DNA from: Botryllus schlosseri | Lineage: Eukaryota | Direction: 5' to 3' | Assembly (NCBI GenBank): GCA_051294905.1 | Contig: CM119371.1 | Coordinates: 28,770,001-28,834,000 of the forward strand | Length of the DNA stretch: 64,000 nt | Shown: positions 625-36,300 of the stretch, in pieces | Layout of the letters: every line of letters begins with the position of its first letter | How positions within the stretch are numbered: position 1 is the stretch's first letter | Position numbers and translations under genes: made by a program | Notes under the pieces: generated by a model | Told to the model about the DNA's origin: nothing | Seen by the model: the letters and a program-made list of their open reading frames with translations, nothing else | Database searches by the model: none

Positions 625-1980
625 CAGGCCGTGTTATTTTTGGCATTTCAGGAGCCAGATGCCAAAACTGCCAAAAATAAAAATTTGAAAATGCCAAAAA
701 TAAGCAATTTTTGGCATATGCCAAAAATAACATGGCCTGCCAAATAGTGTATTTCGTTCATGGTGTTGTGTTAACAGGACCGCGTTACAAGCGAGAAGAG
801 CGTTTTTGAAAGGCAGGTTTCTTAATCTGGGTCCAGCCCACCCATTAGGGGTGAAAGCATGGTGTCCTAAATGGTGTGGGCACAGCGTGATTGAACGGCT
901 GACTGCATTTGGTTTACTTCATACTTTCCATTTGTCCAAAGGCAATTTTACGACCATTTTTGACCGGCTTGTCGAGCACTAAATTTGATAAAACGCGTAT
1001 CAATGAGAAGTTGCCGCAGTACTGATTATTAAAATATAAATTATATTCTGCTCATGGAGCTGGAACCCCCAAAATCAACCACGATTTTTGCATTGTGATC
1101 GAGTTGAACATTGTGACGCAACAAACTGCCTGGCTATTTCTGAGCTGCATAGTCTCGTTTTGCCAGACAGTCTTGTTGCGTCAATGTTCTTAAACAAGCT
1201 AACCTTCCCAGGACTCTTCCATGCGAGTTGGTAATATTCAAGCCACCTGAAGTGACAAAAGTCCTCCGAAAATATATCGGTAGACTGAAGGAGAAATGAT
1301 AGTCGGGCTACTAAATGGAATGTGTTGAGAGACAACACAGGAAACTCCTGGAAAAGGATCGGGAAGAGAATTCTTTCCGCGATGAGATCGATGGCACTGG
1401 CGAAGTAATCTCTTTTCATGATGCATGGAAGCATGTTCGGCCCTCCAAAGATTTTGAAGCTCTGAAAACCTTTTGTGGATGACTGGCAACATTCTTTCCC
1501 TCAACGGCTACTGTTGAAGCCGATATTTCCCAGATTCGCTTGGCGAGAAATGAATTTAGGAGAAACTTAGCTGACCTGAGTTTGGAAGCACTGTTACAGT
1601 GCAAACGATTTATGTCTATTCAACAGCTGTAACAATCAGCTGTTGAGCGTGTTTGTTAGGCTTTTCTTTCTTTTTTTTTGCTTATTGGCACCGAGTCCGA
1701 TGGATACTGCACATTTTGTGGTTTCGTTTGATATTATTAACCTATGAAATCGCTAGGTTTTTTCTTCTTATTGTTTGTTGGCACTGATTATACGTGGATG
1801 CTGCACATTTTGTGGTGTCTTTTGACAAACTAGCCCAAATAAAGCGTTTTTGTGACTAATTCGAGGCTGAAACTATCTATTTAGAGGACGATGCCAAAAC
1901 TGCCAAAAATAAAAATCGAAAAATGCCAAAAATAAGTTATTTTTGGCAGTTTTGGCATATGCCAAAAATAACACGGCCTG
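625..1980 (+). mobile_element. Defective hAT transposon
   Basis: TIRs caggccgtgttatttttggca and tgccaaaaataacacggcctg. Perfect 8-bp TSD gtaatggt at 617-624 and 1981-1988. Confidence 0.85.
1420..1632 (+). pseudogene. hAT-like transposase C-terminal fragment
   Basis: Translates DAWKH...FCG*LATFFPSTATVEADISQIRLARNEFRRNLADLSLEALLQCK, resembling the hAT dimerisation region. It has an in-frame stop and lies inside TIRs with an 8-bp TSD. Confidence 0.65.
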
Positions 1981-3940
1981 GTAATGGTGAAGCGTCCGGC
2001 TTCTCGATCGGTAGGTTGTGGGTTCGATCCCCGGCCGGGTCAGACCAAAGACCTGATTGGTAACACTGGTATCCATGACTTCCCTGCTTGGCGCTCATGC
2101 ATTACTGGGATAGCATGGAGGGGTGGTGCATGACTTAGAAAGCCGTAGAGGCTATATCTGCACTTCCTTGTCCAGCGGCATATGCACTCATGGTATGCAT
2201 ATGCACAGATCGTGTGTATGTGTATCATGAGTCGGTGTATATGTCGCAAAAATCATCAAGGACAAAAATAAACTACGTCCTTTCCTTTCCTTATGGGAAC
2301 GCACTGTGATTTGATATGAATTGAACTTGATTTTTGATGTATTCATTTCTCATTCACAATTTCATTCAATTTCCAAGTTTTGCGAATTTAGTAATTCTAA
2401 TTCGAATCTAATCTAATTAGGAGAAAGCTGTGTAGCTCTAATTCTAATCCTAATCTAATTTGGAAATATTTCGTTGCTCTAATTCTAGTTCTAATCTAAT
2501 TTGAAAAAAACTGTGTTGCTCTAATTTTAATTCTAATCTAATTTGGAAAAAACTGTGTAGCTCTAATTCTAATCTAATTTAAAAAAGCTGAAAATTTTCT
2601 AGTTGTGCAAGTCTGCTTGAGCTCCATCTCGCATTGCGTAGAGATGAAGGTTTATGCTACTTGATGGGTGGTAATCTACTATTTTCTCTGAAAGAGCTCT
2701 TTTGCTCTTGAGCTACTCTCTCGTTTCGCCAGACAGCATTGTTGCGTCCCAATGCCAATCTCCATAACAATGAAAAATTCGAGGCTGATTGTGAGAGTTC
2801 TGGGGTCACGAGCGGAATAAACTTTATATTTTCGTAATCAGTGCAGAGTCAGCTTTCGATTGATACCCGTTTGACCAAATTTAATGCTCGGCAAGTCGGT
2901 CAAAAATTACCGTCAAATTGCCTGTAGCCAAATGGAAATTGTGACGTGAACCAATTTCACTGAGGCGTGAGATTTGCTTGTGTCGACACCATATAGGACA
3001 CTATGGTTTTACCATATCATCTCCAAATTTGTAGCTGAGAGTTGGATTTGTTGAGGATGTTGGATTGAAGAAGTCCGACATATGCTTTAAGAATCGATAA
3101 TATTATGGTGGCAACCAATGTATTGTGATATATGAAAAACCTTGCTCATCATTGTAATTTGCAGTTTCACAACGACATTCCGCCGCCCAGTATCACCAGA
3201 TACTGAGTCGCATATGATATGGCATTTTCAAATTTTCATGATATTCCTCGAATCAGTTTTCTAGACCGCTGAAAATATGTTGAGTTGTTCTACTTTCGCC
3301 TTTTCGAACAGCCAGTTGGATTTGTGTCAGACAAATTGAAATTATACGATATATATAGTCTACATCTAAAATCGAAATTGATAATTATTTATTAATTATT
3401 TAATTTTGTCTAAGCAAGAAAACGATCGGATTAATTCAATCTGGGCAATCACAATTTACCAAAATACTATTTTATATCTTTTTAATTAGAATTGTGTCAG
3501 TTAAATTCAAATAAGTCGGTATATATATTATATAGTCTGTATCTAGAAAAAAAAGCCTATCCTTTCATACAGTAGAAAACTGGACAATTTTTGTGCGGGA
3601 GGTTTTTGTTTAACCAGTCTTAACTGTTGTTAATTTTGAAATCAGGACACAAAAGTTCATCGTTTGTGACTACAGGACACACAAAATGTTGAATTTTTAT
3701 TCTAGTCATCATCCCTAATGTTCGATATTTACTGACTTGAGTGATTCTTTCCGTGGAAGTCCTTATTGCAAATTTCATTTTTTGATAGACATACTGGATA
3801 CTACGAGTCATCATCGTAGGTTTGTGATCTCCCTGGATTAGACCAAGAATATCTATCAATATCGTGACACGATATATAAATCGTGCAAACGATGCAGGTA
3901 GTTGCTAATCATCCGCTACAGTCTCGCTCATTGTGTCCAG

Positions 3941-6900
3941 ATTTAACATCTTACGCATCAAGGATTTCATCGCTTGAGAACGAAAATAAGAAAACAACCG
4001 CAGGTGATATATATTATATATATATTATTTTGTTATACGATAATGAGAGTGGTTATGTAAAAATATTTCCGAAATACTCAATACCCAAATTTTTATTGGT
4101 ACTGCTGGTACTAGTGCTACGTTTTCCGAATCCTGAAGTAGGTTTTGCTTACTTGTACTAATTTAGTGTAGTTCGGTTTTTAGACTTTACAGTCACTGCT
4201 ACTTAACAGTTTTCTAGGCAAAACCGCTCATTCATTATCATTTGGATTTTAATTTATAAATAGGAAGTCGCATTTGGATGCCGGCTTGCATCATCTTTGT
4301 GTGAGTTAAAGTGTCATGAAAACTTCAAGACGGAGCTCGTGTATCACGGTACCTGGATAAGTGGATATATTTTCATGAATTGCACCTATCTGTATTGTCA
4401 TTGGCCATTTTGCGAAAGAGCATCGATCAAAAGTATGCGTAAAACTATAGTTACTTGAGTAGGCCTACTTTATATATCTACATTTTATACTTCAACTTGA
4501 AGTAATTTTGACATGCCTTCAAAATTACTTTTTCTATGTGTAATCGAGTAGCAACTTACGGCGTTGCTTTTACTAGAGCAGCAACACTGACAATTAACCA
4601 TTTCCGGTATATAAATTTAATAATTCATAAGAATAAGTTGCTATATATATTTGTTGTCACTATGAATGACATTGTTAACGAGGTATTTCTGTTAACGAGG
4701 TATGAAATAGGACGGAAAGGTGCCAGAAGTAGAAATCGCCTCCTATATCCTGCTTTCGAGCAAGAAATTCGCCAGTACCCACGATTTTCAAGAATGACAA
4801 TTTGTACATGGAAGCTATATCGTGTGATATCTCGCATATACCAATAACTTTATGTTTTTACGGATAAATTGCCGCGAACCTGTGAAAGCAACCACGATTT
4901 CATTTCTACTGTATCTATAAAGTACATTGTATAATGATCATGACAATGTTTGCAATATGATTACTTCTAGAAATGGAAGCTCTGAAGACCAAATTACTGA
5001 AATCGGAACAAAGCAATAAAGCGCTTTTGAAGGGTATGTAACGTTGACATAGGAATATATGATTTCATCTGATATGTAAATTGCAAGTGTGAAATTTTTT
5101 TGTGAAGCTTCCATTTTCGTTTAAAAGTCACCGATCTGGATCTGCAGCTACTACTTTGTCACGGGTTGTACCATTCCACTCCATCTGTGTTTGTGCTACG
5201 GAGGTCATGCATCATCGATTCTTAACCCCGTGCGAAATTTCAGGCACTCATTTCTCAAAGGTTGCACTTTTTCGATGCGAAATGCGTCACCTACTTTACA
5301 TACCCATGATAAAACAGCACACTCTTATTGCAACTTGCAACAGACATAAATATAAATCACCAGACTGGTCGAGAGTCGGTTGTACGCTCTAACCGCCCCG
5401 TACACATGTCTTCTGATCTGAAAACTTTTGGCAAGATCTAACATTCTCAAAGATATGCCCACCATAAATAACGCATTATAATGCAAAGAAAGGTCCCTAC
5501 AGCGACTCGACATAATCATGTCACTTTTCAAATGAAATGAATCTGATCAAAGCAACCATGCACGCTTTTATCCGGTTCATTTCTCAAAAACGCGCCAAGC
5601 TAATTTTAAGCTTTACGATCAACTACTATATTGTGTCGTTATTCCTCTTCCTCCTACTTCCCTTATGATAAACACTGATGTATACCTGATAGAACCGAAG
5701 GAGTCGAATTACGATATACAATCGAAACATGTCTGATTGAGAACACCGTGTCCATGACTATTTCATTTCAACACGGTCGTTTTTTATGGAACCGTGTCAT
5801 GGCAAATATTCCAATTTGGTAATCCGGCGCCTATAAGCGTGTACTATGTGATTTCAGAGTTGAACGCCTTGGGGATCAAAACAAATGATTTGGAATCGCA
5901 CCTTGCCGAACCAAACACAGGTATATTTTGTTTTACAATATTTAATCAATCAGTGCGAACGATCAACTAGGCCAGGGATTTTAACCAAACCTAAATCTGT
6001 GGCGAAGAATAGGATTCAAATGAACTTTAGTCTGCGGCCAAGCCGACATGCATAAAGCTAAAATGCAACCACTGTTGAAGCTCTTATTCCATGAACAAAT
6101 TTCGCGCTAGATTGCAGTTGTAATTCGCTACTCGTGACCTGCCGTCAACCGCGAACCTGGCGTACTAATTGTTTTTAGGCTATAGCCCCCACTGCCTTTA
6201 GTACCGCAATTTTGTATTAAAGGCTGAGTTGGCCGAAATAGTCATCGTTGCTACTGAAGTAGATGTTTAAGTAGTAGCGATTTACAATTAAGAAAAATAG
6301 TCAGCATTCTAAACCTATAGTTTATCCAAACAACCTGGAAAGTGTCAAGTAGAAGTATTCTAATGTCATAAACACCGAGAGTAAGTGACGAAAGTAGTCA
6401 AACCTTCAAAACCTACTTGAGTATTCCTAAAAGCAAAATTCCTTTGTTGCTGACCACTTTTGATTAAAGAATTGACCCGCATGGTCACAATGTTTGCGAG
6501 GCTTTCAGATGACATGACTTTATTGACCTGTATCCCCCCAAGGGGTCAACATGAATCTGATCGAGCAAAGCATGTTTAGAAAAATCGAGGCTGGAGAGAT
6601 TGGTCGATTGACGATTATGAAACGAATTGTTAAATTGTTTCTAGCTCTTCTGAGAAGTTGTGAGGACGTCCAATTGGAATCAGCATTAGCACGCAATGAT
6701 TCTGGGTGTGTGTTTAAATTAGACATACCGGAAGTCGGGATCACGAATGTGTTCTGTGACGTAACTGACGATGGAGGAAACTGGACTGTGAGTTGAATGC
6801 GCGATTGTTGCAGAAAAATTTTGATTTCATTCCATTTTCATGAAAGGTTTTCCAGCGAAGAATGAACGGAGACGTTAATTTCAGCAGAGGTTGGGATGAT

Positions 6901-18458: not shown

Positions 18459-19224
18459 CTCATATGAAACCAGTTTCAACTTTCAAATCTCTCATTTGGA
18501 GATTTGCTACAGCGACCGCGGGTGACTCATTTTGTCCGCGTTGGTGACCCCTGTAATAGAGACATTTAAATCACGAAGCTCGAAGAACATTTTCAAGAAT
18601 TAATTTAATCTCTCGAAAATACTCTATAACAGGAGTGGGCAAACTTTTGTGCTCGCGGGCCGCATTCAACATCTGAATCCATTCGCGGGCCGCAGCACTA
18701 TATAAAATTGGGATTATAAACCAAAACTAAATATTGGTGTTTGATTATATAGTGACGACATGGAGACAATATATATGCTTATTTAGAACAAAACAAACAT
18801 TGCTATTGATGATATCGTACACGCGTCAAAAACAGTGGCGAGATTTCATAGGCTGGTGTAGCTCAATAACCAATTTGTCAAAACTATAGAGATGATTGTC
18901 AGTTGTCCCGTGTCCCCCTTATCGTCATATCACAAAACGCAACCATGAAGCTAGCAAGCCTAACGAATAGTTTGATGGCATGGAAGGTTACGACTGTTTT
19001 AAATATGAAATTCAGATTAAATACAGAGCAATAATTAGGAATTGGATTGAGACAAGCTTCGCGCCTCCCTTCAGATGCTTTCACGCCCCTCAGTTTGAGA
19101 ACCACTTCCTTAGAATTATCATGGTGTAATATACTAAGAAAAAGTTTAATCAAGTCCCTGCAGTAGTGAGGCTAAGGAACTTTGGCGCCCGCCAATCCCA
19201 GAAGACCACGTCGCCTTAATTGTC

Positions 19225-19405
19225 ACGCCTACATTGCCACATCATCCGCCCATTGCCGCACCTATAGCACACCCATTGCCACACCTATAGGACGCCCCTT
19301 GCCACATCATCAGCCACGCCCATTGCTACACCATTTGATACGTCATCAGCCACGCGCATTGCCACATCACTCGCCTATATAACGCCCATTGCTACATCAT
19401 CATGA
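19225..19405. repeat. Subterminal iterated motif cccattgc(c/t)aca (mirror copy 33590-33770)
   Basis: About 7 imperfect copies at roughly 20-40 bp spacing, close to each terminus. Confidence 0.75.
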
Positions 19406-19651
19406 TTATGCGTACTGAGCTGTTTTTGAGAACATGAATTCTCGCGTAATACACTAAACGTTGAACTAGATTTCATAACGTCACCACAGAAGAATTAGGC
19501 AACTATCTTGCTCTAGGTTCTAGGTTCGATCCCTGTAGTCGCCGCATTTCATACGATTAAGCGCTTTTCATATCTCCTAACACTTTACTCAGTCTCATTG
19601 AAATAGCCTTGTATAGTGTACGAGTTCATTTTATTTCGTAAAAAGAGCATA

Positions 19652-20158
19652 TCAATGATATCGCTGATCGTTATTGCGTCGATTCGCGTTCTGAAATCCT
19701 CCAGGTCGGTTGATGTTTCGAGGTACACCGCTTTGCTGCCATCCGACGCCGCGATCCGAGTTCTTGCGTTCGATCTGGCCGTTTTGTTTGATGTAGCGAT
19801 CACTGGCTTGTAGTATATACGATACGAGCGGAAGGTCAGGATTAGGAACAACTACGCTGGGCGAATAGATGACAAATTCATCAGCCGGATTCAGAGGTTG
19901 ATAATGCTCGATCCCATCGCGAGTATACGTAACGACCAAACCTCCTTCATGCTTCAGAGTGGCTCGATATTTCTGAATGGTCCCACTTGTGGAATGTACA
20001 AAGAGTTGATCCGAGGTCAATTCTGCTCCATTCGAGGCTTCGATACGTAATTTTGTGATGTCATTAAAAAGATACAAGTCTTTTCTATAGGGCCCCTGGG
20101 GCAGAATAGTATCTCCACGGATTGCTAGACTCATTCTTTGAAAAGAAATATCATACAT
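19652..20158 (-). CDS. Orphan ORF2, left-arm copy (~160-180 aa, start codon uncertain)
   Basis: Intronless open frame directly downstream of and overlapping the BIR ORF. AATAAA follows on the minus strand at 19630-19635. Confidence 0.6.
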   Translation of the reverse strand: MYDISFQRMSLAIRGDTILPQGPYRKDLYLFNDITKLRIEASNGAELTSDQLFVHSTSGTIQKYRATLKHEGGLVVTYTRDGIEHYQPLNPADEFVIYSPSVVVPNPDLPLVSYILQASDRYIKQNGQIERKNSDRGVGWQQSGVPRNINRPGGFQNANRRNNDQRYH

Positions 20159-20732
20159 AAGTACAACAGTCATCACGCAATTCCACTTCACCATCAAATT
20201 TAGTCAAGCCTCTTCTTATATTAGGTGTCGCATAACAGACATTACGAATATATTGCAACCCCTTGCGCTTTATGAGAAAAGGACACGTAGGATAAAACTT
20301 TGCATGTTCGAGCCAGGGGTCATCGCACGGCAACCAATTTTGAAACAGCCCTCCGCATGAGAAACACTTTAAATGATCCTTATAGCCCAAATAGAACAAT
20401 CCGCAGTCTGCGAGCTCGGCTCCGGAGGTATTGATATTATCCGGCCACCGCATAAATGTGCTTAGTCTACGAGCATAGCGTACCATGTTATAGAAAACGG
20501 GATCATTCAATGGGGAGACAGTTACATCTCTATGCTTCGCATAGCATTCATAAATCTTTTCCCCTCTGTTATTTATCATAGCTTGGTACTGTTCAATGGG
20601 ACTCATCCGAGTTTCATCTTCGCTTATTTCTATGCTACTCGTGGTACCGATGCAAGCGCAGTTGAATGTAGCGTAATTTGTAGGATCCACACTACGCTTA
20701 GTTAGAGAATCGCTTTGATCAATGTTCGACAT
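20151..20732 (-). CDS. Single-BIR IAP-like protein, 193 aa, left-arm copy
   Basis: RLSTF..WP...LADCGLFYLGYKDHLKCFSCGGLFQNW...DDPWLEHAKFYPTCPFL, with the canonical CX2CX16HX6C pattern. No RING domain; intronless. Confidence 0.93.
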   Translation of the reverse strand: MSNIDQSDSLTKRSVDPTNYATFNCACIGTTSSIEISEDETRMSPIEQYQAMINNRGEKIYECYAKHRDVTVSPLNDPVFYNMVRYARRLSTFMRWPDNINTSGAELADCGLFYLGYKDHLKCFSCGGLFQNWLPCDDPWLEHAKFYPTCPFLIKRKGLQYIRNVCYATPNIRRGLTKFDGEVELRDDCCTYV

Positions 20733-22420
20733 TGCTATCCGAATTGATATACTCTCATGATCAGTATGCTTTATATAGATATTGAGCTATGCACCATCGA
20801 AAAATGTGCTTGGTACCAATCGAATGATAGGCCCACACACCTAATTTCGTAACTAACTACATAATCCCTAGTAACGTAGTAAGACGCATAACGGAATTTA
20901 CGCAAAATCGGTATTGCTCTGCGATAATTCCGATCACTATGTTTTGATAATGACGTGCTTCCGAGAAATAAATAACATTCATTTTACGTTAGATGATACT
21001 TTTCCTTGATATTCTATCATGTGTGTTTAGGACTAATGCAACATCACTATGTTTACGACATGTCTGATTTGAACACACTAATTTTGCGTATCACACCACA
21101 AACTGCGCAAGCCTTCAAAGTTGATAAGTAAACAAGTATTTGCACTCCATCAGAATACTAAAGTAGCTTTTCGCGTATATGTACCTGTAGCTAATACTAA
21201 AGTGCTTATGATTTCAGATTGCTTCAACTTCATGACATTTTCAGTATTAAACAGAAATATAGAACTAGAATACTAACTTTTATTCGTAAATAGCTACTTC
21301 TACCTTAATTTAATGGATTTATCTGAGATCATTGCTTTACTTAATCCCTCCAAAATGTGCATTGTACAAGTACCTCAGCATCGAAACCCTCTGGCTATAA
21401 CTATCTGGCGGTATAATTGCAGCAATACTCGAGTACTAATTTAAAAGTAGCTTAGGTATCTAAATGAGCTCTGAGTCGCTGTTATCTCGCATCTGACCAT
21501 GGAGTTAACACCGGTATTACCTTCGCTCACTGATGAAAAAGATGAAAGTTATTAAAGAAAGCAGATTTGTATGAAAACTCGTTAAATAGAAGTAAAAGTA
21601 GCCTTGAAACATAACTACTTACTGAAAAATCGTTACGTAGAAGTGGGGTTAGTCTACGAACATAAACACCTACTTACTTTTAATCTCAACTTGTACTTGT
21701 ATTCGTACTTTACCTTTACACGGCGTTTTTGTATAATGTATACTAATTTTATTAAAAATAAACCAAAAGGACAAATATAATTGATCAAATTCATTCATTT
21801 ATGCAAAAAATTGAGAGTCTTGTCGTGATGGTCCGTTTCGAAATGCAAGCGGATGAACTAGACCAAAAGTTTCGAAGATGCGTTTTATAATTGCTCTAGG
21901 TGTGAAATAGACATCGCACTCTTGCGGGGAAACAACATGAATTCAGTCTTCACACCACAGAAACACAGCCGCTTGGTTAACATCACAAAACCGCAATTGA
22001 ACTCAAGATTGTCATACACGGAATCGCTGTTAACGATGTCTGACTGCGGCGTTTCGACGAGTAACGAATTCTCGTATTTAGTATTGATTGTGACACATAG
22101 TCAAAACAGCGACAGTTTTCACAACCCGGTACATACATTGAACCAACTGATGTAAGGTGAAACACTACGTTCGCAGCAAAAAAAAAGTTTGCAGGGCATG
22201 ACCACCACCAACATATAGAGTAGTGAGTGAGTAATTAAACTACATACCCCGATTTTACTATATTCCGAGATCCGGATCACGATTCAAGTCTACCTGAGAA
22301 TCCGAACTACCCTGTGAAGTTGATATATCAAGTTGTGAACCGTGAAAGGGTTGTAATCTCGGTGAAATAGTGTGCGACACATTTTTCCACAAGTCGAATG
22401 CATGTCGGTTCATACTAAGA

Positions 22421-22625
22421 CCATTAGGAATTTGCACAATGACAGGTTATTGAAACCGATGCCAAAACTCAGTATAATAGATTGATATTGATCGCGTGTA
22501 TGTTTGACATATATGCAGCATCTTGGATCGGCGGTGGAGCACTGAATGGCACTGCAGAAGTCATCTACTCTCCTAAGCTTGGACTGATCTGGGCTATTGC
22601 GCCACTGTGTTACGGGTTTAGTGTT
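22421..22625 (+). pseudogene. SLC5A7: Captured fragment of a high-affinity choline transporter (SLC5A7/CHT1-like) gene: exon end, 73-bp intron, truncated exon
   Basis: Splicing gt(22446)..ag(22518) gives PLGICTMTASWIGGGALNGTAEVIYSPKLGLIWAIAPLCYGFSV, matching the CHT1 motif TMTATWVGGGYINGTAE as recalled from memory. Confidence 0.85.
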
Positions 22626-23044
22626 CAAGTACTTTATCTTTACACGACGTTTTTTGTAAAATGAATACTAATTTTATTAAAAAAATAAAAAATAAAAAAG
22701 AGCGAAAAATTACATTATATCCCGGAACGCAACAAGAAAAGTCGTATGAATTTGTAAACTACTTGTTCATGACATAATAATAATTCTACTTGTACACTTT
22801 TTCACATTTTATAACACTTTAAGTAATACTTAACAGTTTCAGTTTTAAATAAAATACGGAATATAAACTAATCGAAAAATTCGGTAACCAATTTCGCGTA
22901 GGCTATGCATGCATACAAATGAGGAAAGTTACATCAACGCGTGTTAAAGTAGCTGTATCGAGTTATCGAATGATTTTCTCCTTACATCAAAACAACTAGA
23001 ATGTATAACTAAATTAAAAAACGTATCTAAATGAGCTCCAGGGC

Positions 23045-24600
23045 ATTGTGATTATGCTGCATACCAAATTTCATCACACATTTCATGATGGAACAACTTT
23101 AAAACTAACGCATTTCTATAGCAACTTTTGCCTAAATCTGTTTTCGGTAGCGTGTACATATACATAGTCAGATTTAATGACAGAATTATCATGCTAATAT
23201 GTGACTCCTCACCTTGAAACTTGGTACGTAGTTGTAGGACATTGTGATTATGCAGCATACCAAATTTCCTCACGCATTTCATAATGGAACAACTTTAAAA
23301 CTAACGCGGTTCTACATCGACTTTTTGCGTACATCTGTTTTGCGTGGGGGGCGTAAAGCACGTACCTATACATGTCAACTTTAACAACGGAATTACCATG
23401 CTTAACATTGAATCCCAACTCGAAATTTGATACGTAGTTATAGGACATTATGGTAATGCACCATGCTAAATTTCATCACACATCTAATGATGGAGCACCT
23501 TTAAAACTAACGCAGTCGAATACCGACTTTTACGCATATCTGTTTTGCGCGAACATAGCATATACCTATACATAGTCAATTTTAATAGCGGAATTACCGT
23601 GTTAAACATTGAATTCCCACCTTGAAAGTTGGTACGCGGTTATAGGAGATTATAACAATGCACCATACCAAATCCCATCACACATTTCATGATGGAACAA
23701 CTTTAAAACTAACGCGGCTCTACATCGACTTTTTGCGTACATCTGTTTTGTGGGAGCGTATAGCACGTAGCCTACCCATACATAGCCAACTTTAATAACG
23801 GAATTACCATGCTTAACATTGAATCCCAACTCGAAACTTGATACGTAGTTATAGAACATTATGGCAATTCACCATGCTAAATTTCATCACACATCTAATG
23901 ATGGAACACCTTTGAAACTATCGCAGTCGAATACCAACTTTTACGCATATCTGTTTTTCGTGAACATAGCATATACCCATACATAGTCAATTTTAATAAC
24001 AGAATTAGCATGCTAAACATTAAATTCTCACCTTGAACGTTGATACGCGGTTGTAGGACATAATAACAATGCACCATACCAAATTTCGTCAGACATTTCA
24101 TGATGTAACACCTTTAAAACCAACGCAGTTCTATACAGACTTTTGGCTAAATCTGTTTTTCCGTAGCGTAGCACGTACCTATACATAGTCAACTTTAATA
24201 ACGGATTTAGCATGTTAATAATCGACTCCCCACCTTGAAACTCGGTATGCAGTTGTAAGACATTATGACAATGCACCATGTCAAATTTTGTTACGCATTT
24301 CATGATTGAACAACTTTAAAACTAACGCAGTTCCATACCGACTTTTGCGAGTGCGTAGCACGTACCTATATGCATACTCAACTTTCATAACGGAATTACC
24401 GAGCTAAACATTGAATGCGCAACTTGAAGATTGGTTCACAGGTGTAGGGCAGTATGACAATGGAACACATCAAATTTCATCACACATTTCATGATGGAAC
24501 ACCTTTAAAACTAACGCAGTTCTATACCAACTTCGCGTGAATCTGTTTGCGGGAGCGTAGCACGTACCTATGCGTGATCAACTTTAGTGATGGAATTACA
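23045..24600. repeat. Tandem array of ~190-210-bp diverged units (about 8), left arm
   Basis: The motif aaatttcatcacacatttcatgatggaacaactttaaaactaacgc recurs about every 200 bp. Confidence 0.9.
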
Positions 24601-25568
24601 TATGTAATTAAGTTTCAACACTTTTACAATGATTCGTCTTGCTTCCTATAACACCCCACTCGAGAAAATGCGTCGTAGGATATAGATGAAACTAGCACCA
24701 CTCATCAAGACCGCTGAAAACAGTACATTTCAACATTTAATAGCAGTAAATTTCTAGTAAAGTACAAGACGTGATGATTTCCGAGTGAGTTAAAAAGTAA
24801 GTATTGCAGGTATAGTTTACCTGAAAACCGAATACTCTGAAATAGAAGTAGATGCAGTGTAAATAGTTAATCACTTAATTAAGTTTAGTGCAAGCAGATA
24901 AAACCTATACTTGAGTAGTACAAAATGCACGAGTACTTCGCTATCGCCTCCCTCCACGTAATAAGTGTCTACGGTTTAAGACTGCTTTTACCGATACTCG
25001 TCGGTTTCAGTTTTAGATAGAATTCGGAAACCAAATAATTTCATAAACATAAGCTAATTTAATGAATTTACTCGAATGTACTATGCCGCGCTGATAAGAT
25101 TAATTATAATATACTTATCATGTTACAGCGATTTTTCTAGCGTAGAAATCTTTAAAATGTAGAAAGCAGGCCAAATGAAGATATTCGTTGAGCTGAATAA
25201 ACATAAAAAATACTCTAGACTACTTTATCGGTACTTTACAGTTACAGTTTTAGATAAAATTTGTCCCTTTCACCTATAATTACAACTCCTCGCTATCTAA
25301 ACATGTTTAGAATATATTATTTGCGATGATACGAACCCGTGAAGTACTCAAGTTGCTTTTCGTAGGATATAGATGAAACTGACAACACTCACCAAGACCA
25401 GTGATCCACTGAAAAAAGTACATTGTAGCAGTAAAGTCCTACTAAAGTACAAGAAGTAATGATTTCCCAGTTAGTTAAAAAGTAAGTATTGAGGTATAGT
25501 TTGCTCGAAAAAGCGAAAAACTCTGAAATAGAAGTAGATGCAGTGTAAATAGGTAATCACTTCATTAA

Positions 25569-25698
25569 GTATTCGTTTAGTTGTATAGACATAAAAAACA
25601 TTCCCGCGCGCTCTTAAACAAAACACTTCCTAACCCTACCACCTAATACTAAGACGCGCGCGGGAATGTTTTTTATGTCTATACAACTAAACGAATAC
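25569..25698. repeat. Perfect 43-bp-stem hairpin at the palindrome apex
   Basis: 25569-25611 is the exact reverse complement of 25656-25698. The loop includes cctaaccctaccacctaa. Confidence 0.95.
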
Positions 25699-27019
25699 CC
25701 ATCGGCCTGCTTACTACATTTTAAATATTCTCTCCACTATTGTGTATACAACAATATACTTCTCTTAGTAAGCAATTTCTCGTGAATTCCGAAGCACATT
25801 GACACGTGTTAACTTCTATATTCGGTGATAGTATCATTTTCATGTCTGATAATGTTACTTGTCAAGGTGATACAAACGTAAGCTCAAACTACTTTAAAAT
25901 TTAAAGTCTTACCAAATTTTATCTAACACTGAAACTGTCGAGTACCGATAAAGTACTCTAAAACCTAGTCACTTTTTACGTGGAGGGAGAACATAGCGAA
26001 GTACTTGTAAATTTGCAGTACTTAAGTATAGGTTTGGCCTGCTTGCGCTATACTTAATGAAGTGATTACCTATTTACACTGCATCTACTTCTATTTCAGA
26101 GTTTTTCGCTTTTTCGAGCAAACTATACCTCAATACTTACTTTTTAACTAACTGGGAAATCATTACTTCTTGTACTTTAGTAGGACTTTACTGCTACAAT
26201 GTACTTTTTTCAGTGGATCACTGGTCTTGGTGAGTGTTGTCAGTTTCATCTATATCCTACGAAAAGCAACTTGAGTACTTCACGGGTTCGTATCATCGCA
26301 AATAATATATTCTAAACATGTTTAGATAGCGAGGAGTTGTAATTATAGGTGAAAGGGACAAATTTTATCTAAAACTGTAACTGTAAAGTACCGATAAAGT
26401 AGTCTAGAGTATTTTTTATGTTTATTCAGCTCAACGAATATCTTCATTTGGCCTGCTTTCTACATTTTAAAGATTTCTACGCTAGAAAAATCGCTGTAAC
26501 ATGATAAGTATATTATAATTAATCTTATCAGCGCGGCATAGTACATTCGAGTAAATTCATTAAATTAGCTTATGTTTATGAAATTATTTGGTTTCCGAAT
26601 TCTATCTGAAACTGAAACCGACGAGTATCGGTAAAAGCAGTCTTAAACCGTAGACACTTATTACGTGGAGGGAGGCGATAGCGAAGTACTCGTGCATTTT
26701 GTACTACTCAAGTATAGGTTTTATCTGCTTGCACTAAACTTAATTAAGTGATTAACTATTTACACTGCATCTACTTCTATTTCAGAGTATTCGGTTTTCA
26801 GGTAAACTATACCTGCAATACTTACTTTTTAACTCACTCGGAAATCATCACGTCTTGTACTTTACTAGAAATTTACTGCTATTAAATGTTGAAATGTACT
26901 GTTTTCAGCGGTCTTGATGAGTGGTGCTAGTTTCATCTATATCCTACGACGCATTTTCTCGAGTGGGGTGTTATAGGAAGCAAGACGAATCATTGTAAAA
27001 GTGTTGAAACTTAATTACA

Positions 27020-29950
27020 TATGTAATTCCATCACTAAAGTTGATCACGCATAGGTACGTGCTACGCTCCCGCAAACAGATTCACGCGAAGTTGGTATAG
27101 AACTGCGTTAGTTTTAAAGGTGTTCCATCATGAAATGTGTGATGAAATTTGATGTGTTCCATTGTCATACTGCCCTACACCTGTGAACCAATCTTCAAGT
27201 TGCGCATTCAATGTTTAGCTCGGTAATTCCGTTATGAAAGTTGAGTATGCATATAGGTACGTGCTACGCACTCGCAAAAGTCGGTATGGAACTGCGTTAG
27301 TTTTAAAGTTGTTCAATCATGAAATGCGTAACAAAATTTGACATGGTGCATTGTCATAATGTCTTACAACTGCATACCGAGTTTCAAGGTGGGGAGTCGA
27401 TTATTAACATGCTAAATCCGTTATTAAAGTTGACTATGTATAGGTACGTGCTACGCTACGGAAAAACAGATTTAGCCAAAAGTCTGTATAGAACTGCGTA
27501 GGTTTTAAAGGTGTTACATCATGAAATGTCTGAAGAAATTTGGTATGGTGCATTGTTATTATGTCCTACAACCGCGTATCAACGTTCAAGGTGAGAATTT
27601 AATGTTTAGCATGCTAATTCTGTTATTAAAATTGACTATGTATGGGTATATGCTATGTTCACGAAACACAGATATGCGTAAAAGTTGGTATTCGACTGCG
27701 ATAGTTTCAAAGGTGTTCCATCATTAGATGTGTGATGAAATTTAGCATGGTGAATTGCCATAATGTTCTATAACTACGTATCAAGTTTCGAGTTGGGGTT
27801 CAATGTTAAGCATGGTAATTCCGTTATTAAAGTTGGCTACGTGCTATACGCTCCCACAAAACAGATGTACGCAAAAAGTCGATGTAGAGCCGCGTTAGTT
27901 TTAAAGTTGTTCCATCATGAAATGTGTGATGGGATTTGGTATGGTGCATTGTTATAATCTCCTATAACCGCGTACCAACTTTCAAGGTGGGAATTCAATG
28001 TTTAACACGGTAATTCTGCTATTAAAATTGACTATGTATAGGTATATGCTATGTTCGCGCAAAACAGATATGCGTAAAAGTCGGTATTCGACTGCGTTAG
28101 TTTTAAAGGTGCTCCATCATTAGATGTGTGATGAAATTTAGCATGGTGCATTACCATAATGTCCTACAACTACGTATCAAGTTTCGAGTTGGGATTCAAT
28201 GTTAAGCATGGTAATTCCGTTGTTAAAGTTGACTATGTATAGGTACGTGCTATACGCCCCCACGCAAAACAGATGTACGCAAAAAGTCGATGTAGAACCG
28301 CGTTAGTTTTAAAGTTGTTCCATTATGAAATGCGTGAAGAAATTTGGTATGCTGCATAATCACAATGTCCTACAACTACCTACCAAGTTCCAAGGTGAGG
28401 AGTCACATATTAGCATGATAATTCTGTTATTAAATCTGACTATGTATATGTACACACTACCGAAAACAGATTTAGGCAAAAGTTGCTATAGAACTGCGTT
28501 AGTTTTAAAGTTGTTCCATCATGAAATGTGTGATGAAATTTGGTATGCAGCATAATCACAATGCCCTGGAGCTCATTCAGATACGTTTTTTAATTTAGTT
28601 ATACATTCTAGTTGTTTTGATGTAAGGAGAAAATCATTCGATAACTCGATACAGCTACTTTAACACGCGTTGATGTAACTTTCCTCATTTGTATGCATGC
28701 ATAGCCTACGCGAAATTGGTTACCGAATTTTTCGATTAGTTTATATTCCGTATTTTATTTAAAACTAAGTCGATTATTAACATGCTAAATCCGTTATTAA
28801 AGTTGACTATGTATAGGTACGTGCTACGCTACGGAAAAACAGATTTAGCCAAAAGTCTGCATAGAACTGCGTTGGTTTTAAAGGTGTTACATCATGAAAT
28901 GTCTGACGAAATTTGGTATGGTGCATTGTTATTATGTCCTACAACCGCGTATCAACGTTCAAGGTGAGAATTTAATGTTTAGCATGCTAATTCTGTTATT
29001 AAAATTGACTATGTATGGGTATATGCTATGTTCACGAAAAACAGATATGCGTAAAAGTTGGTATTCGACTGCGATAGTTTCAAAGGTGTTCCATCATTAG
29101 ATGTGTGATGAAATTTAGCATGGTGGATTGCCATAATGTTCTATAACTACGTATCAAGTTTCGAGTTGGGATTCAATGTTAAGCATGGTAATTCCGTTAT
29201 TAAAGTTGGCTATGTATGGGTAGGCTACGTGCTATACGCTCCCACAAAACAGATGTACGCAAAAAGTCGATGTAGAGCCGCGTTAGTTTTAAAGTTGTTC
29301 CATCATGAAATGTGTGATGGGATTTGGTATGGTGCATTGTTATAATCTCCTATAACCGCGTACCAACTTTCAAGGTGGGAATTCAATGTTTAACACGGTA
29401 ATTCCGCTACTAAAATTGACTATGTATAGGTATATGCTATGTTCGCGCAAAACAGATATGCGTAAAAGTCGGTATTCGACTGCGTTAGTTTTAAAGGTGC
29501 TCCATCATTAGATGTGTGATGAAATTTAGCATGGTGCATTACCATAATGTCCTACAACTACGTATCAAATTTCGAGTTGGGATTCAATGTTAAGCATGGT
29601 AATTCCGTTGTTAAAGTTGACATGTATAGGTACGTGCTATACGCCCCCCACGCAAAACAGATGTACGCAAAAAGTCGATGTAGAACCGCGTTAGTTTTAA
29701 AGTCGTTCCATTATGAAATGCGTGAGGAAATTTGGTATGCTGCATAATCACAATGTCCTACAACTACGTACCAAGTTTCAAGGTGAGGAGTCACATATTA
29801 GCATGATAATTCTGTCATTAAATCTGACTATGTATATGTACACGCTACCGAAAACAGATTTAGGCAAAAGTTGCTATAGAACTGCGTTAGTTTTAAAGTT
29901 GTTCCATCATGAAATGTGTGATGAAATTTGGTATGCAGCATAATCACAAT
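27020..29950. repeat. Right-arm ~200-bp array (about 14 units), enlarged by a 1.37-kb tandem duplication
   Basis: 27395-28767 is repeated from 28768 to ~30155. The first copy lacks 15 nt present in the second copy and in the left arm. Confidence 0.9.
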
Positions 29951-30369
29951 GCCCTGGAGCTCATTTAGATACGTTTTTTAATTTAGTTATACATTCTAGT
30001 TGTTTTGATGTAAGGAGAAAATCATTCGATAACTCGATACAGCTACTTTAACACGCGTTGATGTAACTTTCCTCATTTGTATGCATGCATAGCCTACGCG
30101 AAATTGGTTACCGAATTTTTCGATTAGTTTATATTCCGTATTTTATTTAAAACTGAAACTGTTAAGTATTACTTAAAGTGTTATAAAATGTGAAAAAGTG
30201 TACAAGTAGAAATATTATTATGTCATGAACAAGTAGTTTACAAATTCATACGTTTTTTCTTGTTGCGTTCCGGGATATAATGTAATTTTTCGCTCTTTTT
30301 TATTTTTTATTTTTTTAATAAAATTAGTATTCATTTTACAAAAAACGTCGTGTAAAGATAAAGTACTTG

Positions 30370-30574
30370 AACACTAAACCCGTAACACAGTGGCGCAATA
30401 GCCCAGATCAGTCCAAGCTTAGGAGAGTAGATGACTTCTGCAGTGCCATTCAGTGCTCCACCGCCGATCCAAGATGCTGCATATATGTCAAACATACACG
30501 CGATCAATATCAATCTATTATACTGAGTTTTGGCATCGGTTTCAATAACCTGTCATTGTGCAAATTCCTAATGG
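30370..30574 (-). pseudogene. SLC5A7: Mirror copy of the SLC5A7-like fragment
   Basis: Reverse complement of 22421-22625. Confidence 0.85.
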
Positions 30575-32217
30575 TCTTAGTATGAACCGACATGCATTCG
30601 ACTTGTGGAAAAATGTGTCGCACACTATTTCACCGAGATTACAACCCTTTCACGGTTCACAACTTGATATATCAACTTCACAGGGTAGTTCGGATTCTCA
30701 GGTAGACTTGAATCGTGATCCGGATCTCGGAATATAGTAAAATCGGGGTATGTAGTTTAATTACTCACTCACTACTCTATATGTTGGTGGTGGTCATACC
30801 CTGCAAACTTTTTTTTTGCTGCGAACGTAGTGTTTCACCTTACATCAGTTGGTTCAATGTATGTACCGGGTTGTGAAAACTGTCGCTGTTTTGACTATGT
30901 GTCACAATCAATACTAAATACGAGAATTCGTTACTCGTCGAAACGCCGCAGTCAGACATCGTTAACAGCGATTCCGTGTATGACAATCTTGAGTTCAATT
31001 GCGGTTTTGTGATGTTAACCAAGCGGCTGTGTTTCTGTGGTGTGAAGACTGAATTCATGTTGTTTCCCCGCAAGAGTGCGATGTCTATTTCACACCTAGA
31101 GCAATTATAAAACGCATCTTCGAAACTTTTGATCTAGTTCATCCGCTTGCATTTCGAAACGGACCATCACGACAAGACTCTCAATTTTTTGCATAAATGA
31201 ATGAATTTGATCAATTATATTTGTCCTTTTGGTTTATTTGTAATAAAATTAGTATACATTATACAAAAACGCCGTGTAAAGGTAAAGTACGAATACAAGT
31301 ACAAGTTGAGATTAAAAGTAAGTAGGTGTTTATGTTCGTAGACTAACCCCACTTCTACGTAACGATTTTTCAGTAAGTAGTTATGTTTCAAGGCTACTTT
31401 TACTTCTATTTAACGAGTTTTCATACAAATCTGCTTTCTTTAATAACTTTCATCTTTTTCATCAGTGAGCGAAGGTAATACCGGTGTTAACTCCATGGTC
31501 AGATGCGAGATAACAGCGACTCAGAGCTCATTTAGATACCTAAGCTACTTTTAAATTAGTACTCGAGTATTGCTGCAATTATACCGCCAGATAGTTATAG
31601 CCAGAGGGTTTCGATGCTGAGGTACTTGTACAATGCACATTTTGGAGAGATTAAGTAAAGCAATGCTCTCAGATAAATCCATTAAATTAAGGTAGAAGTA
31701 GCTATTTACGAATAAAAGTTAGTATTCTAGTTCTATATTTCTGTTTAATACTGAAAATGTCATGAAGTTGAAGCAATCTGAAATCATAAGCACTTTAGTA
31801 TTAGCTACAGGTACATATACGCGAAAAGCTACTTTAGTATTCTGATGGAGTGCAAATACTTGTTTACTTATCAACTTTGAAGGCTTGCGCAGTTTGTGGT
31901 GTGATACGCAAAATTAGTGTGTTCAAATCAGACATGTCGTAAACATAGTGATGTTGCATTAGTCCTAAACACACATGATAGAATATCAAGGAAAAGTATC
32001 ATCTAACGTATAATGAATGTTATTTATTTCTCGGAAGCACGTCATTATCAAAACATAGTGATCGGAATTATCGCAGAGCAATACCGATTTTGCGTAAATT
32101 CCGTTATGCGTCTTACTACGTTACTAGGGATTATGTAGTTAGTTACGAAATTAGGTGTGTGGGCCTATCATTCGATTGGTACCAAGCACATTTTTCGATG
32201 GTGCATAGCTCAATATC

Positions 32218-32253
32218 TATATAAAGCATACTGATCATGAGAGTATATCAATT
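32218..32253 (+). promoter_or_regulatory. TATA box plus Inr-like motif upstream of the BIR ORF (mirror 20742-20777)
   Basis: tatataaa at 32218-32225, tcaatt 30 nt later at 32248-32253, ATG at 32263. Confidence 0.55.
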
Positions 32254-32262
32254 CGGATAGCA

Positions 32263-32844
32263 ATGTCGAACATTGATCAAAGCGATTCTCTAACTAAGCG
32301 TAGTGTGGATCCTACAAATTACGCTACATTCAACTGCGCTTGCATCGGTACCACGAGTAGCATAGAAATAAGCGAAGATGAAACTCGGATGAGTCCCATT
32401 GAACAGTACCAAGCTATGATAAATAACAGAGGGGAAAAGATTTATGAATGCTATGCGAAGCATGGAGATGTAACTGTCTCCCCATTGAATGATCCCGTTT
32501 TCTATAACATGGTACGCTATGCTCGTAGACTAAGCACATTTATGCGGTGGCCGGATAATATCAATACCTCCGGAGCCGAGCTCGCAGACTGCGGATTGTT
32601 CTATTTGGGCTATAAGGATCATTTAAAGTGTTTCTCATGCGGAGGGCTGTTTCAAAATTGGTTGCCGTGCGATGACCCCTGGCTCGAACATGCAAAGTTT
32701 TATCCTACGTGTCCTTTTCTCATAAAGCGCAAGGGGTTGCAATATATTCGTAATGTCTGTTATGCGACACCTAATATAAGAAGAGGCTTGACTAAATTTG
32801 ATGGTGAAGTGGAATTGCGTGATGACTGTTGTACTTATGTATGA
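32263..32844 (+). CDS. Single-BIR IAP-like protein, 193 aa, right-arm copy
   Basis: Same protein as the left copy except HGDV versus HRDV. Confidence 0.93.
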   Translation: MSNIDQSDSLTKRSVDPTNYATFNCACIGTTSSIEISEDETRMSPIEQYQAMINNRGEKIYECYAKHGDVTVSPLNDPVFYNMVRYARRLSTFMRWPDNINTSGAELADCGLFYLGYKDHLKCFSCGGLFQNWLPCDDPWLEHAKFYPTCPFLIKRKGLQYIRNVCYATPNIRRGLTKFDGEVELRDDCCTYV

Positions 32845-33343
32845 TATTTCTTTTCAAAGAATGAGTCTAGCAATCCGTGGAGATACTATTCTGCCCCAGG
32901 GGCCCTATAGAAAAGACTTGTATCTTTTTAATGACATCACAAAATTACGTATCGAAGCCTCGAATGGAGCAGAATTGACCTCGGATCAAATCTTTGTACA
33001 TTCCACAAGTGGGACCATTCAGAAATATCGAGCCACTCTGAAGCATGAAGGAGGTTTGGTCGTTACGTATACTCGCGATGGGATCGAGCATTATCAACCT
33101 CTGAATCCGGCTGATGAATTTGTCATCTATTCGCCCAGCGTAGTTGTTCCTAATCCTGACCTTCCGCTCGTATCGTATATACTACAAGCCAGTGATCGCT
33201 ACATCAAACAAAACGGCCAGATCGAACGCAAGAACTCGGATCGCGGCGTCGGATGGCAGCAAAGCGGTGTACCTCGAAACATCAACCGACCTGGAGGATT
33301 TCAGAACGCGAATCGACGCAATAACGATCAGCGATATCATTGA
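32837..33343 (+). CDS. Orphan ORF2, right-arm copy (possible starts ATG 32801, 32837 or 32861)
   Basis: Overlaps the BIR stop (ATGTATGA at 32837-32844). AATAAA at 33360-33365. Differs from the left copy at DQIFV versus DQLFV. Confidence 0.6.
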   Translation: MYDISFQRMSLAIRGDTILPQGPYRKDLYLFNDITKLRIEASNGAELTSDQIFVHSTSGTIQKYRATLKHEGGLVVTYTRDGIEHYQPLNPADEFVIYSPSVVVPNPDLPLVSYILQASDRYIKQNGQIERKNSDRGVGWQQSGVPRNINRPGGFQNANRRNNDQRYH

Positions 33344-36300
33344 TATGCTCTTTTTACGAAATAAAATGAACTCGTACACTATACAAGGCTATTTCAATGA
33401 GACTGAGTAAAGTGTTAGGAGATATGAAAAGCGCTTAATCGTATGAAATGCGGCGACTACAGGGATCGAACCTAGAACCTAGAGCAAGATAGTTGCCTAA
33501 TTCTTCTGTGGTGACGTTATGAAATCTAGTTCAACGTTTAGTGTATTACGCGAGAATTCATGTTCTCAAAAACAGCTCAGTACGCATAATCATGATGATG
33601 TAGCAATGGGCGTTATATAGGCGAGTGATGTGGCAATGCGCGTGGCTGATGACGTATCAAATGATGTAGCAATGGGCGTGGCTGATGATGTGGCAAGGGG
33701 CGTCCTATAGGTGTGGCAATGGGTGTGCTATAGGTGCGGCAATGGGCGGATGATGTGGCAATGTAGGCGTGACAATTAAGGCGACGTGGTCTTCTGGGAT
33801 TGGCGGGCGCCAAAGTTCCTTAGCCTCACTACTCCCTGCATTAATTCGATTTTTGGTACGCATTTTATCAATATTTTAATAAGTTTCTTTAGACTCTCGC
33901 GGGCCGCACAGAACGGTGTTGCGGGCCGTAGTTTGCCCACCCCTGCTCTATAATCTATCTTGGTTTACCTTACGAAATACTTTTGAGTCACTTTCGAGTA
34001 GCCTACGCTCCCCACCCTATTAGGGAGTTTGGGGTGCGGCAGTTAAAGACCTGGTAAGAATGCAAATCGTTGGGTGCGATAAATCATCCCCTATAAGGTT
34101 GGGCAATGGGTACATTATGAATTAACAAGCGAATGACGCATGATGTAGAAAGTTGATATCTCATTAGGCCTTTTCATCGCAATCCATATATTGTCTGCCA
34201 ATATATCTTCTAAAATTATGGTCCTAAGAAACAAAATGAATGTAATCGTGAGTAATCGTGATTCCTTTTCCAATGTAATCGTAATCGTAATCGACTGCTT
34301 CCTGATTTTGCTGTAATCGTAATCGCAATCGATTACATTCATGAAGTAATCACCCCATGTCTATGGTTCACACACAGAGAACGAACGTGAACCTCACGTT
34401 CACACCATCCCTAATAGTTATATAACGTGTATTCAAACTTTCTTCGCGTTTCGCGCGATTTATTGCCACATACTATCTTGATATCAGCATGGGTAGCCAT
34501 AGGCTACTAGCCTAGTCTTCCCCCAATGAAAATACGCATAATTTATAGGGATAGGCATTTCGGCATCCGGCATTACCACGTCACGACATACTAAGACGTT
34601 GACAACGACGTTTCAGCCAACATGCGGCTCTTCGAAATGTACTGCGAAAAAGCTCGGCGGCGAGGGAACCTTGGCTGGAAAGGACCGAGTCATGTTGGCC
34701 GAAACCGATATATAATATTGAATTTTCCCTTGTCCATAGACGCTTGAATGGCTGGCGCCTAATGTTCTTGTCCTGGCAATCTGAGCCCCACATTATAATT
34801 GCCACCCATAGAGATAAATCATCCACTCCGTGAAGAAATATAACTTCTTAGTCAACACCACAGCAGTATTATTATAAAGTGGATTTTAGCCAACGCAAGA
34901 GGATTCCCCGTAAAAATCTAGAATTAGCAGTTTCTAGTCCGGTGATGTAACTCTTTTCTGGATCCCAAATTAATAATGCTCTATTACACTCGAAGAGTTT
35001 TCGGGTGCCTCTTTTCAAGAGTTATCGGTACACTAATTACCATTTAGGTGAGAACCTCTCCTGTGCACAGAACTCTCATGATGACATGCACAGCACACGA
35101 GATGTCGATTATCGAGACCGATACTTGGAACTTTACAGATTATCGATATCGGCCTATGATGGCTGATATCGCGGCCGATATTTCATGTTAAAAAAAATCA
35201 AAAACTAAACTTGCAGGTCAAACCGCTGAGAATACATGCTGAGCTTCCTGCATTACAACTTACTTCTACTGGACTGGGCTGCATTTCTGCATCACGTTTT
35301 GAATTTTTGGGTAGCCTAAATTTCAATGAATGTGCAAAATTCAGCAACAATTCTTTCCGATTTCAGTTTTGCTTGCTTGTTGTATGCATACAGCTTTTTG
35401 TGGCATGTACAAGTGCCATCTTGCCCAATATATAATATTTTTGGAGGAAATGGTTCTCTACTCCTTCCATAATATCGGCCTATCGGTTATCGGCGATGTG
35501 AGTGTGTCGATAATAGGTATCGGTATCGGCCTGCAAAATCAATATCGGTCGACCTCTATTGCTCACTGTTATTAAGCCCATTTGCATGGCCGATTGGGTC
35601 AGCTTCGAAGCTGACTCGTCAATCCGACTCCCTCATTTTCGAAAAAGGGAAAAAGGCAAATTGCTACCACCATCTTGAGCCAAATCCGTTTCGCGCAGAC
35701 TGTGAGGCGGCTTGAGCAATAGCAGTGCAATAGCAGAGCAATAGCTCCCGACTCTACCATTTCTACCAACATTTATAAAAATAAAATCACGAACTCGGCA
35801 CCCATCTGGTTGAAAAGAAGAGCCATATCATTGCATGATACTGATGTTCCAACGATATGCACGTGGTCTTATTTGCTAAGCGTGACGGATTATGAAGCGA
35901 GTATAGCAAATTAGCAAACCATATAACTTGCACAGCTCAGCATCAGGGAAATACGCAAGATGTGCTACGTTATTCTGGAAATGCGAAAACTATTCGGATT
36001 ATTGAACTTGCGTAGCATAATCCCCTAGCTTAATCCCAGACGGCTGTATCACTAGATTGGTTATCTATAGTATCACTTGAGCTGTGACAACTTTTGCCTA
36101 TGAAATTGTAAACTCAATCGAATTTTCAGCACTTCGGTCAGCCGTCACATGACGTCACTCCAACACGACTTAGCTCCGAGACGACCTCACCATGTAAATA
36201 TGGGCTTATTTGGGTTTGCCAAATTTTGGAAATCTGAAAAGTGGACACTTTTTCAAATTTTTCAGACTTGCAATCCCGAATAAATGGTAAAAATGTTTCC

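Follow-up and report, generated by a model that had tools for sequence, protein, structure and literature searches.

An intron-bearing fragment of an SLC5A7-like gene, probably captured from host DNA, in both arms of a palindromic Maverick derivative

In a stretch of 64,000 nucleotides from Botryllus schlosseri (contig CM119371.1, positions 28,770,001 to 28,834,000; hereafter the window, numbered from its first letter), a palindromic derivative of the Maverick family carries in each arm a truncated piece of an SLC5A7-like gene that still holds an intron. We regard it as likely that this piece is a patch of host DNA, copied from arm to arm and now a passenger of one element subfamily. A break or a stalled copy in one arm would have been patched from the chromosomal DNA of the host gene, with element sequence being replaced; the patch itself may have been made by repair or by a template switch, as suggested by the replacement, the cuts inside exons, the length of about 200 bp and a right-hand overlap of 2-4 nt. 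Arm-to-arm copying would then have mirrored the piece into the other arm, and an autonomous Maverick helper would have amplified the subfamily, the piece travelling as a passenger in what appears to be a multi-copy spread. The coordinates of the features are collected in Table 1.

Table 1. Features of the captured segment and of the element that carries it (window coordinates).
Feature	Position	Strand	Remarks
Captured host segment	22425..22621	+	197 bp between family breakpoints; at most 201 bp with the right overlap
Upstream SLC5A7-like exon, last 21 nt	22425..22445	+	Thr-Met-Thr codons and first base of Ala
Phase-1 GT-AG intron	22446..22518	+	73 nt, 34% GC; position common to L001-L004 and L007
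Downstream exon, 5' part	22519..22625	+	about CHT1 residues 60-95; 51% GC; cut within the exon
Apparent overlap at right junction, 2-4 nt	22622..22625	+	backbone side, yet codons match P0135; inferred
Mirror copy of captured segment	30374..30570	-	100% identical; intron at 30477-30549
Non-autonomous palindromic element	19162..33833	.	14,672 bp; Maverick/Polinton ends AGTAGT...ACTACT
Target-site duplication, left, CCCTGC	19156..19161	+	6 bp
Target-site duplication, right, CCCTGC	33834..33839	+	6 bp
Central spacer between arms	25573..26049	.	477 bp; local hairpin 25569-25698
202-bp tandem array, left arm	23060..24599	.	right-arm array 27089-29935 longer by a 1.39-kb tandem duplication
211-aa frame with BIR (IAP) domain	20151..20786	-	PF00653, E 1.9e-18; mirror 32209-32844 (+)
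183-aa frame of no known family	19652..20203	-	mirror 32792-33343 (+)
Backbone direct repeat, copy 1	21705..21758	+	55 bp, 91% identical to copy 2
Backbone direct repeat, copy 2	22629..22683	+	adjoins the captured piece on its right; runs into an A-rich tract

Positions 22425-22625 of the forward strand read as an exon, an intron and a second exon of an SLC5A7/CHT1-like gene, which bears out the initial annotation of the site as an intron-containing fragment of a host choline-transporter-like gene. Codons for Leu-Gly-Ile-Cys-Thr-Met-Thr and one further G, ending at 22445, run up to a donor at 22446 (context G, then GT), and the acceptor AG ends at 22518. The layout had been described correctly, but the G before the donor is not a glycine: it is the first base of an Ala codon that the phase-1 intron splits. 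The downstream exon piece matched CHT1 residues 60-94 in a search of the PDB (E 2e-8), where all three matches with E<=1 were SLC5A7 proteins, in keeping with the earlier claim that the best matches would be SLC5A7-like. Among 1.84 billion cluster representatives, 134 proteins matched at E<=0.001 (best 3.1e-14), and the informatively named proteins among ten matches looked up were CHT1 proteins; two high-ranking matches, P0002 and P0016, turned out on inspection to be repetitive and unrelated. A GT donor preceded by Thr-Met-Thr codons, expected by chance about 3.5e-4 times per 450 nt, occurs at two sites in the 64-kb window, both of them in the mirror copies. A Pfam search with the unspliced 73-aa frame gave no match. 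The complete transporter frame (about 540-580 aa) is absent, the piece comprising about 43 codons from two exons that are both cut internally; it encodes no transporter, and most likely has no protein function.

To place the intron in the parent gene family, we used 135 proteins, namely the 134 search matches and one further protein, P0135; many of the matches are open frames taken directly from genomic DNA, so that their translation crosses the end of the intron into the exon. A filter, which misfiled a handful in both directions, sorted the set into 106 proteins with non-homologous sequence upstream of the Ala, 20 of spliced appearance and 9 that do not have the motif. Where an AG acceptor interrupts the Ala codon behind base 1, the preceding residue must have a codon ending in A. 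Residues without such a codon should thus be missing just before the Ala, and there they numbered 0 of 106, compared with counts of 44 (of 106), 39 (of 105) and 48 (of 103) for the next three positions (p 4e-21). At the nucleotide level, the genomic loci L001-L004 and L007 have AG followed by C at the intron site, and in six spliced-looking loci (L006, L008-L012) Thr-Met-Thr or Thr-Met-Gly is joined directly to Ala. The metagenome scan behind these loci gave 17 of them, all distant (best amino-acid identity 69%, with no useful nucleotide match), so that they inform on intron position alone; the upstream exon was not found in the available flanks of L001-L004 and L007. Animal SLC5A7 genes therefore carry an intron at exactly this phase-1 position, as the annotation had supposed of the host gene. 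We presume that human SLC5A7 has an intron there as well (c.178); a print source that was checked gave no confirmation, the match in it being to another gene.

The probable parent of the captured piece, judged by sequence, is the gene behind P0135, a protein from a 996-bp genomic contig. P0135 agrees at 35 of 36 exon residues and at five of the six codons read through the 3' end of the intron; it extends past the break of the fragment into conserved sequence that is absent from the window, and becomes unrelated where L001-L004 have their next intron. Such near identity points to a recent capture. P0001 is less close, agreeing at 31 of 36 exon residues. The fragment, P0001 and P0135 share Ala-Leu where most homologues have Tyr/Phe-Ile, which makes 'SLC5A7-like' a safer name than CHT1; the parent would be a divergent SLC5A7-like gene and may be a CHT1-like paralogue. 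Word-based protein searches did not find a full-length parent (matching candidates 0 of 5, 4 of 298 and 1 of 1, the last being P0001; the four were three fish CHT1-like proteins and one close relative), and exact look-up of window frames in the protein collection found 0 of 4. Two other candidates were set aside. A contig of run X17 over 22467-22666, considered as the parent gene, enters element backbone without gaps and has G in place of the acceptor A; a Phe-Phe-Val-Lys run past the break, considered as further transporter sequence, falls in the direct repeat of the backbone, in a register shifted by three codons.

The carrier is a young, non-autonomous Maverick/Polinton derivative and not an autonomous Maverick. 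Mavericks are defined by (AGT)2//(ACT)2 termini and a target-site duplication of 6 bp (Barreat and Katzourakis, 2021; PMC8097293), both of which the carrier has, along with terminal inverted repeats. Vertebrate Maverick/Polinton elements (PMC8097293) and adintoviruses (PMC8502044) are further described with a length of about 15 kb and an IAP homologue, as found here; unlike them, the carrier lacks the core genes and consists to about 97% of inverted repeats, which span nearly its whole length. Since its ends and target duplication are of Maverick type, it is not a cut-and-paste TIR (transposase) element. Genes for pPolB, integrase, ATPase, protease and capsid are absent, BIR being the sole Pfam match among the 16 arm frames scanned; as there is neither pPolB nor integrase, we infer that mobility depends on a helper. 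The longest frames have 211 and 183 aa, and an Atlas search with the shorter one gave weak matches only (0.76, 0.75); the BIR/IAP frame is followed by the overlapping 183-aa frame, and both point outward in either arm. A search of viral contigs with the element end gave 0 matches. Three structures of the arms and centre were seen in passing: the 1.39-kb tandem duplication, present in the right arm only (26050-28766), either postdates the last arm copying or is a feature of the assembly; a diverged tandem unit of about 690 bp lies near the centre (24673-25570); and the 130-bp hairpin that opens the spacer (25569-25698) is a candidate turning point for arm copying. Outside the element, the window holds a 413-aa frame with about 14 tandem C2H2 zinc fingers at an 84-bp period (44698-45939, minus strand) and two pairs of dispersed repeats of 90-96% identity (3088-3564/62753-63232 and 42117-43054/60590-61564), which are probably unrelated small transposons.

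Copies of the element family with and without the piece were compared by mapping four sequencing runs from four studies (X1, X2, X17 and X23) onto 20900-23000. X23 is a single-cell RNA run under the same species label, of which 3% was read, and X17 is RNA by guess only. Of the 412 loose ends, 168 differences and 14,773 pieces, those listed (24, 40 and 24, respectively) supply the details below; 20 of the 24 runs listed contain the stretch (8 studies, two organism labels), the listing naming no RNA run among those that contain it, and four runs of the second organism label, which may be a second species or a mixed sample, contain 0.65-0.71 of the words of 21700-22800. Among the loose ends listed, those behind 22424 came from X2 (4 contigs) and X17 (2), and those before 22622 from X1 (18) and X23 (6 reads); one X1 contig departs from the window at 22424. 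Between 22424 and 22622, other family copies have different DNA: the piece replaced 197 bp of element sequence in one subfamily and does not belong to the plan common to the family. Captured DNA begins near 22425, since other family copies match the window through 22424 and then diverge. Truncation on both sides, as originally described, is thus borne out, but the start at 22421 given for the fragment is not; it includes roughly 4 backbone bases, in agreement with the lack of a counterpart to the Pro codon at 22421 in all 41 spliced or intronless homologues compared, a set chosen by a motif filter and including many near-identical mammals. On the right, family backbone restarts at 22622 while the match to P0135 reaches 22625, so that 2-4 nt appear to overlap.

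An X2 contig spanning 22395-22655 with one difference has the same chimera in an independent sample, reaching 34 letters past the right breakpoint and 30 past the left (one under the bridging rule), and the X17 contig crosses the right junction. Giant palindromes are prone to assembly error, which is the point in favour of an assembly chimera; the independent contigs over the junctions, the 19 arm differences over 5066 bp, the clean target duplication and the E values of 2e-8 and 3e-14 speak against a chimera or a chance resemblance. We give this explanation practically no weight. As for abundance, X1 depth over the piece was 1641-4110 (bins 2774-3492) versus 15,505-197,085 in the other 28 bins, and 8-16 in diverged single contigs, which suggests that the filled form is a multi-copy minority subfamily; summed contig depth is not copy number, and dips may reflect the filter. 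The dip is clear in X1 only, X2 and X17 having other bins equally low or lower. The case for empty and filled forms consequently rests on the breakpoints. One low-depth X1 contig jumps 919 bases between the direct-repeat copies, and is perhaps a deletion form.

The nature of the junctions bears on how the piece was acquired. Neither a poly-A tract nor a duplication was found at the two junctions of the captured piece. Together with cuts that fall within exons, retention of the intron and replacement of element DNA, the absence of poly-A makes capture at the DNA level, in the manner of Pack elements, the best reading, as the annotation had proposed. The template could also have been RNA: if unspliced pre-mRNA from the parent gene was reverse-transcribed where the element was broken, the intron would likewise have been kept. 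An intron of 73 nt could stay in nascent RNA, and exon sequence lies at the centre of the captured piece. The junctions lack the poly-A tail and the duplication, however, and the exon-internal cuts, the replacement and the right-hand overlap match the DNA gap filling described for Pack elements (PMC8277862), which makes an RNA template very unlikely. Even less credible to us is that the piece is the relic of a once whole cargo gene trimmed to 200 bp, or was captured by a non-palindromic ancestor. Mavericks are described as carrying host-derived, intron-bearing genes near the left TIR (bioRxiv 10.1101/2022.07.12.499685), and the carrier does have an IAP frame; but ordinary family backbone resumes at sharp breakpoints on both flanks, no further SLC5A7-like piece was found among the arm frames of at least 30 aa, and the closeness to P0135 indicates that the event was recent.

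Patching from host DNA also finds its closest parallels among known captures. Akin to animal Pack-TIRs (Tan et al., 2021; PMC8277862) and rice Pack-MULEs (PMC5861414), a short host genomic piece with exon sequence sits inside a DNA mobile element, for which gap filling or template switching has been proposed as the origin; the short overlaps at the breakpoints in those systems have an apparent counterpart here at the right junction. Captures by animal Pack-TIRs have a median of 224 bp, to which the size of the present piece is close, show microhomology in 67.6% and are multi-copy in 4 cases (1.4%) (PMC8277862). As opposed to these, the present carrier has Maverick/Polinton ends, a term that does not occur in the main text of that study; multiple copies, rare there, are probable here; and the carrier is a full palindrome, so that the capture is present twice per element in opposite orientation. 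The carrier thus works like a Pack element without being one in the strict sense.

The mirror copy that had been reported is exact: reverse-complemented, 30370-30574 gives 22421-22625 without a difference. Two explanations for it were proposed at the outset. Arm homogenisation is favoured by rare variants that the arms share, and capture before formation of the palindrome is not needed. At 22492 both arms have T, while C was found in X1 (3151 of 3151 depth), in the X2 and X17 contigs and in X23 (4 of 4 reads), and at 20930, 20931 and 22012 both arms share a state present at less than 1% of X1 depth. States that are rare or absent elsewhere and yet stand on both arms indicate that late variants reach both arms, and homogenisation accounts for the mirror copy. 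The T at 22492 could be private to the subfamily of the assembled individual, and is no proof of timing. At 20984, 21347, 22197 and 22741, among the differences listed, it is the left arm that has a private state, the right arm agreeing with the family. The 19 arm differences postdate the last arm copying.

We also asked what the runs say about RNA from the element. Over the piece, X23 gave 4-6 reads, all in one direction, which is sense and runs inward; these reads keep the 3' end of the intron and have few starts, and the A-rich tract beside the piece may have primed them internally. Elsewhere in the arm X23 has reads of both directions. No joint that skips the intron was listed in the four runs, X23 having only 4-6 reads there with 3% of the run read. 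In X17, A>G and T>C differences were found at 76 places and C>T and G>A at 22, compared with 24:30 in X1 (a deep run, in which the listing thresholds hide rare variants), 14:15 in X2 and 19:18 in X23 (Fisher p 7e-5, 0.005 and 0.005, respectively). X23, the sole certain RNA run, shows no such excess. The X17 contig over 22467-22666 (200 letters, 31 differences, no gaps) shows four A>G changes. Those at 22511, 22513 and 22517 cannot stem from the P0135 allele, and one of them destroys the acceptor; in other samples these three are absent or at about 1% (X1) or absent (X2). The fourth, at 22563, gives the Val of P0135, and one X17 contig has an off-type change, T>G at 22503. The A>G and T>C excess in X17 spans the arm from 20900 to 23000 in both polarities and is not confined to the captured piece.

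This pattern is suggestive of ADAR editing. The fragment alone folds unremarkably (local RNA folding, z -0.62), so that for editing the RNA would have to pair with the mirror arm, at a distance of 8.1 kb, or with an antisense copy. From the single run X17, we lean slightly towards the view that inward-running element RNA sometimes pairs with its mirror or an antisense copy and is A-to-I edited. In Xenopus tropicalis, palindromic Harbinger repeats are described whose RNA can fold on itself and be hyper-edited from A to I (Porath et al., 2017; PMC5625713); those repeats measure about 200 bp and are well documented, whereas the stem here would be kilobases in length and contain host exon sequence, and the signal comes from one run of uncertain type. 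Our search of the literature, which covered few subscription papers, found no report of Maverick RNA editing.

Silencing of the parent gene by the piece is possible. In its full form, this explanation would have the mirrored fragment act as a regulatory hairpin whose double-stranded RNA and small RNAs lower the parent transcript to the benefit of element or host, and hence promote its spread. The perfect mirror copies 8.1 kb apart, the near identity to the probable parent, the sense and inward reads of X23 over the piece with both directions elsewhere in the arm, and the A>G/T>C excess in X17 would all fit, and rice Pack-MULEs that are young and close to their parents are described as giving more siRNAs (PMC5861414). 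Against this, the X23 reads over the piece number just 4-6, with few starts and possible internal priming at the A-rich tract; a duplex would tend to unwind under hyper-editing (PMC5625713); and the piece-less family is at least as abundant, so that the spread calls for no benefit. We therefore consider selection of the piece as a regulatory hairpin improbable, and retain the reading of a patch of host DNA carried as a passenger.

Capture of gene fragments by DNA transposons, editing of palindromic repeats and intron-bearing Maverick cargo are already known. In the literature searched, of the scope given above, we found no palindromic Maverick derivative with a truncated capture whose breakpoints had been mapped. 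The nearest Maverick cases are the nematode elements with cargo such as wasp proteases and krma kinases, which likewise hold host-derived, intron-containing sequence near an element end; those elements carry whole genes together with polymerase, integrase and capsid, as opposed to the 200-bp scrap in a gene-poor palindrome found here (bioRxiv 10.1101/2022.07.12.499685). This scrap, nearly identical to its probable parent, resembles cargo uptake at its earliest stage.

On the uptake of host genes by Mavericks, the nematode work shows intron-bearing cargo and not the event. With empty and filled forms side by side, breakpoints located to single bases and a probable parent of near-identical sequence, the mechanism of capture becomes testable in this family. 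The mirrored insert is at the same time an internal marker of late changes that reach both arms, and so bears on the copying of palindromes. If the duplex RNA is real, every capture would automatically be a candidate trigger of silencing. A bolder proposal, which we think unlikely, is that palindromic Maverick satellites are natural builders of hairpin RNA, in which a patched host scrap would be mirrored, amplified and transcribed into a kilobase-scale duplex that knocks down its parent in trans; ADAR editing would be the counter-measure of the host, and the SLC5A7-like subfamily a first case and the earliest visible step of host cargo uptake. The piece itself is most likely a passenger, and as such a useful marker of capture and of arm copying.
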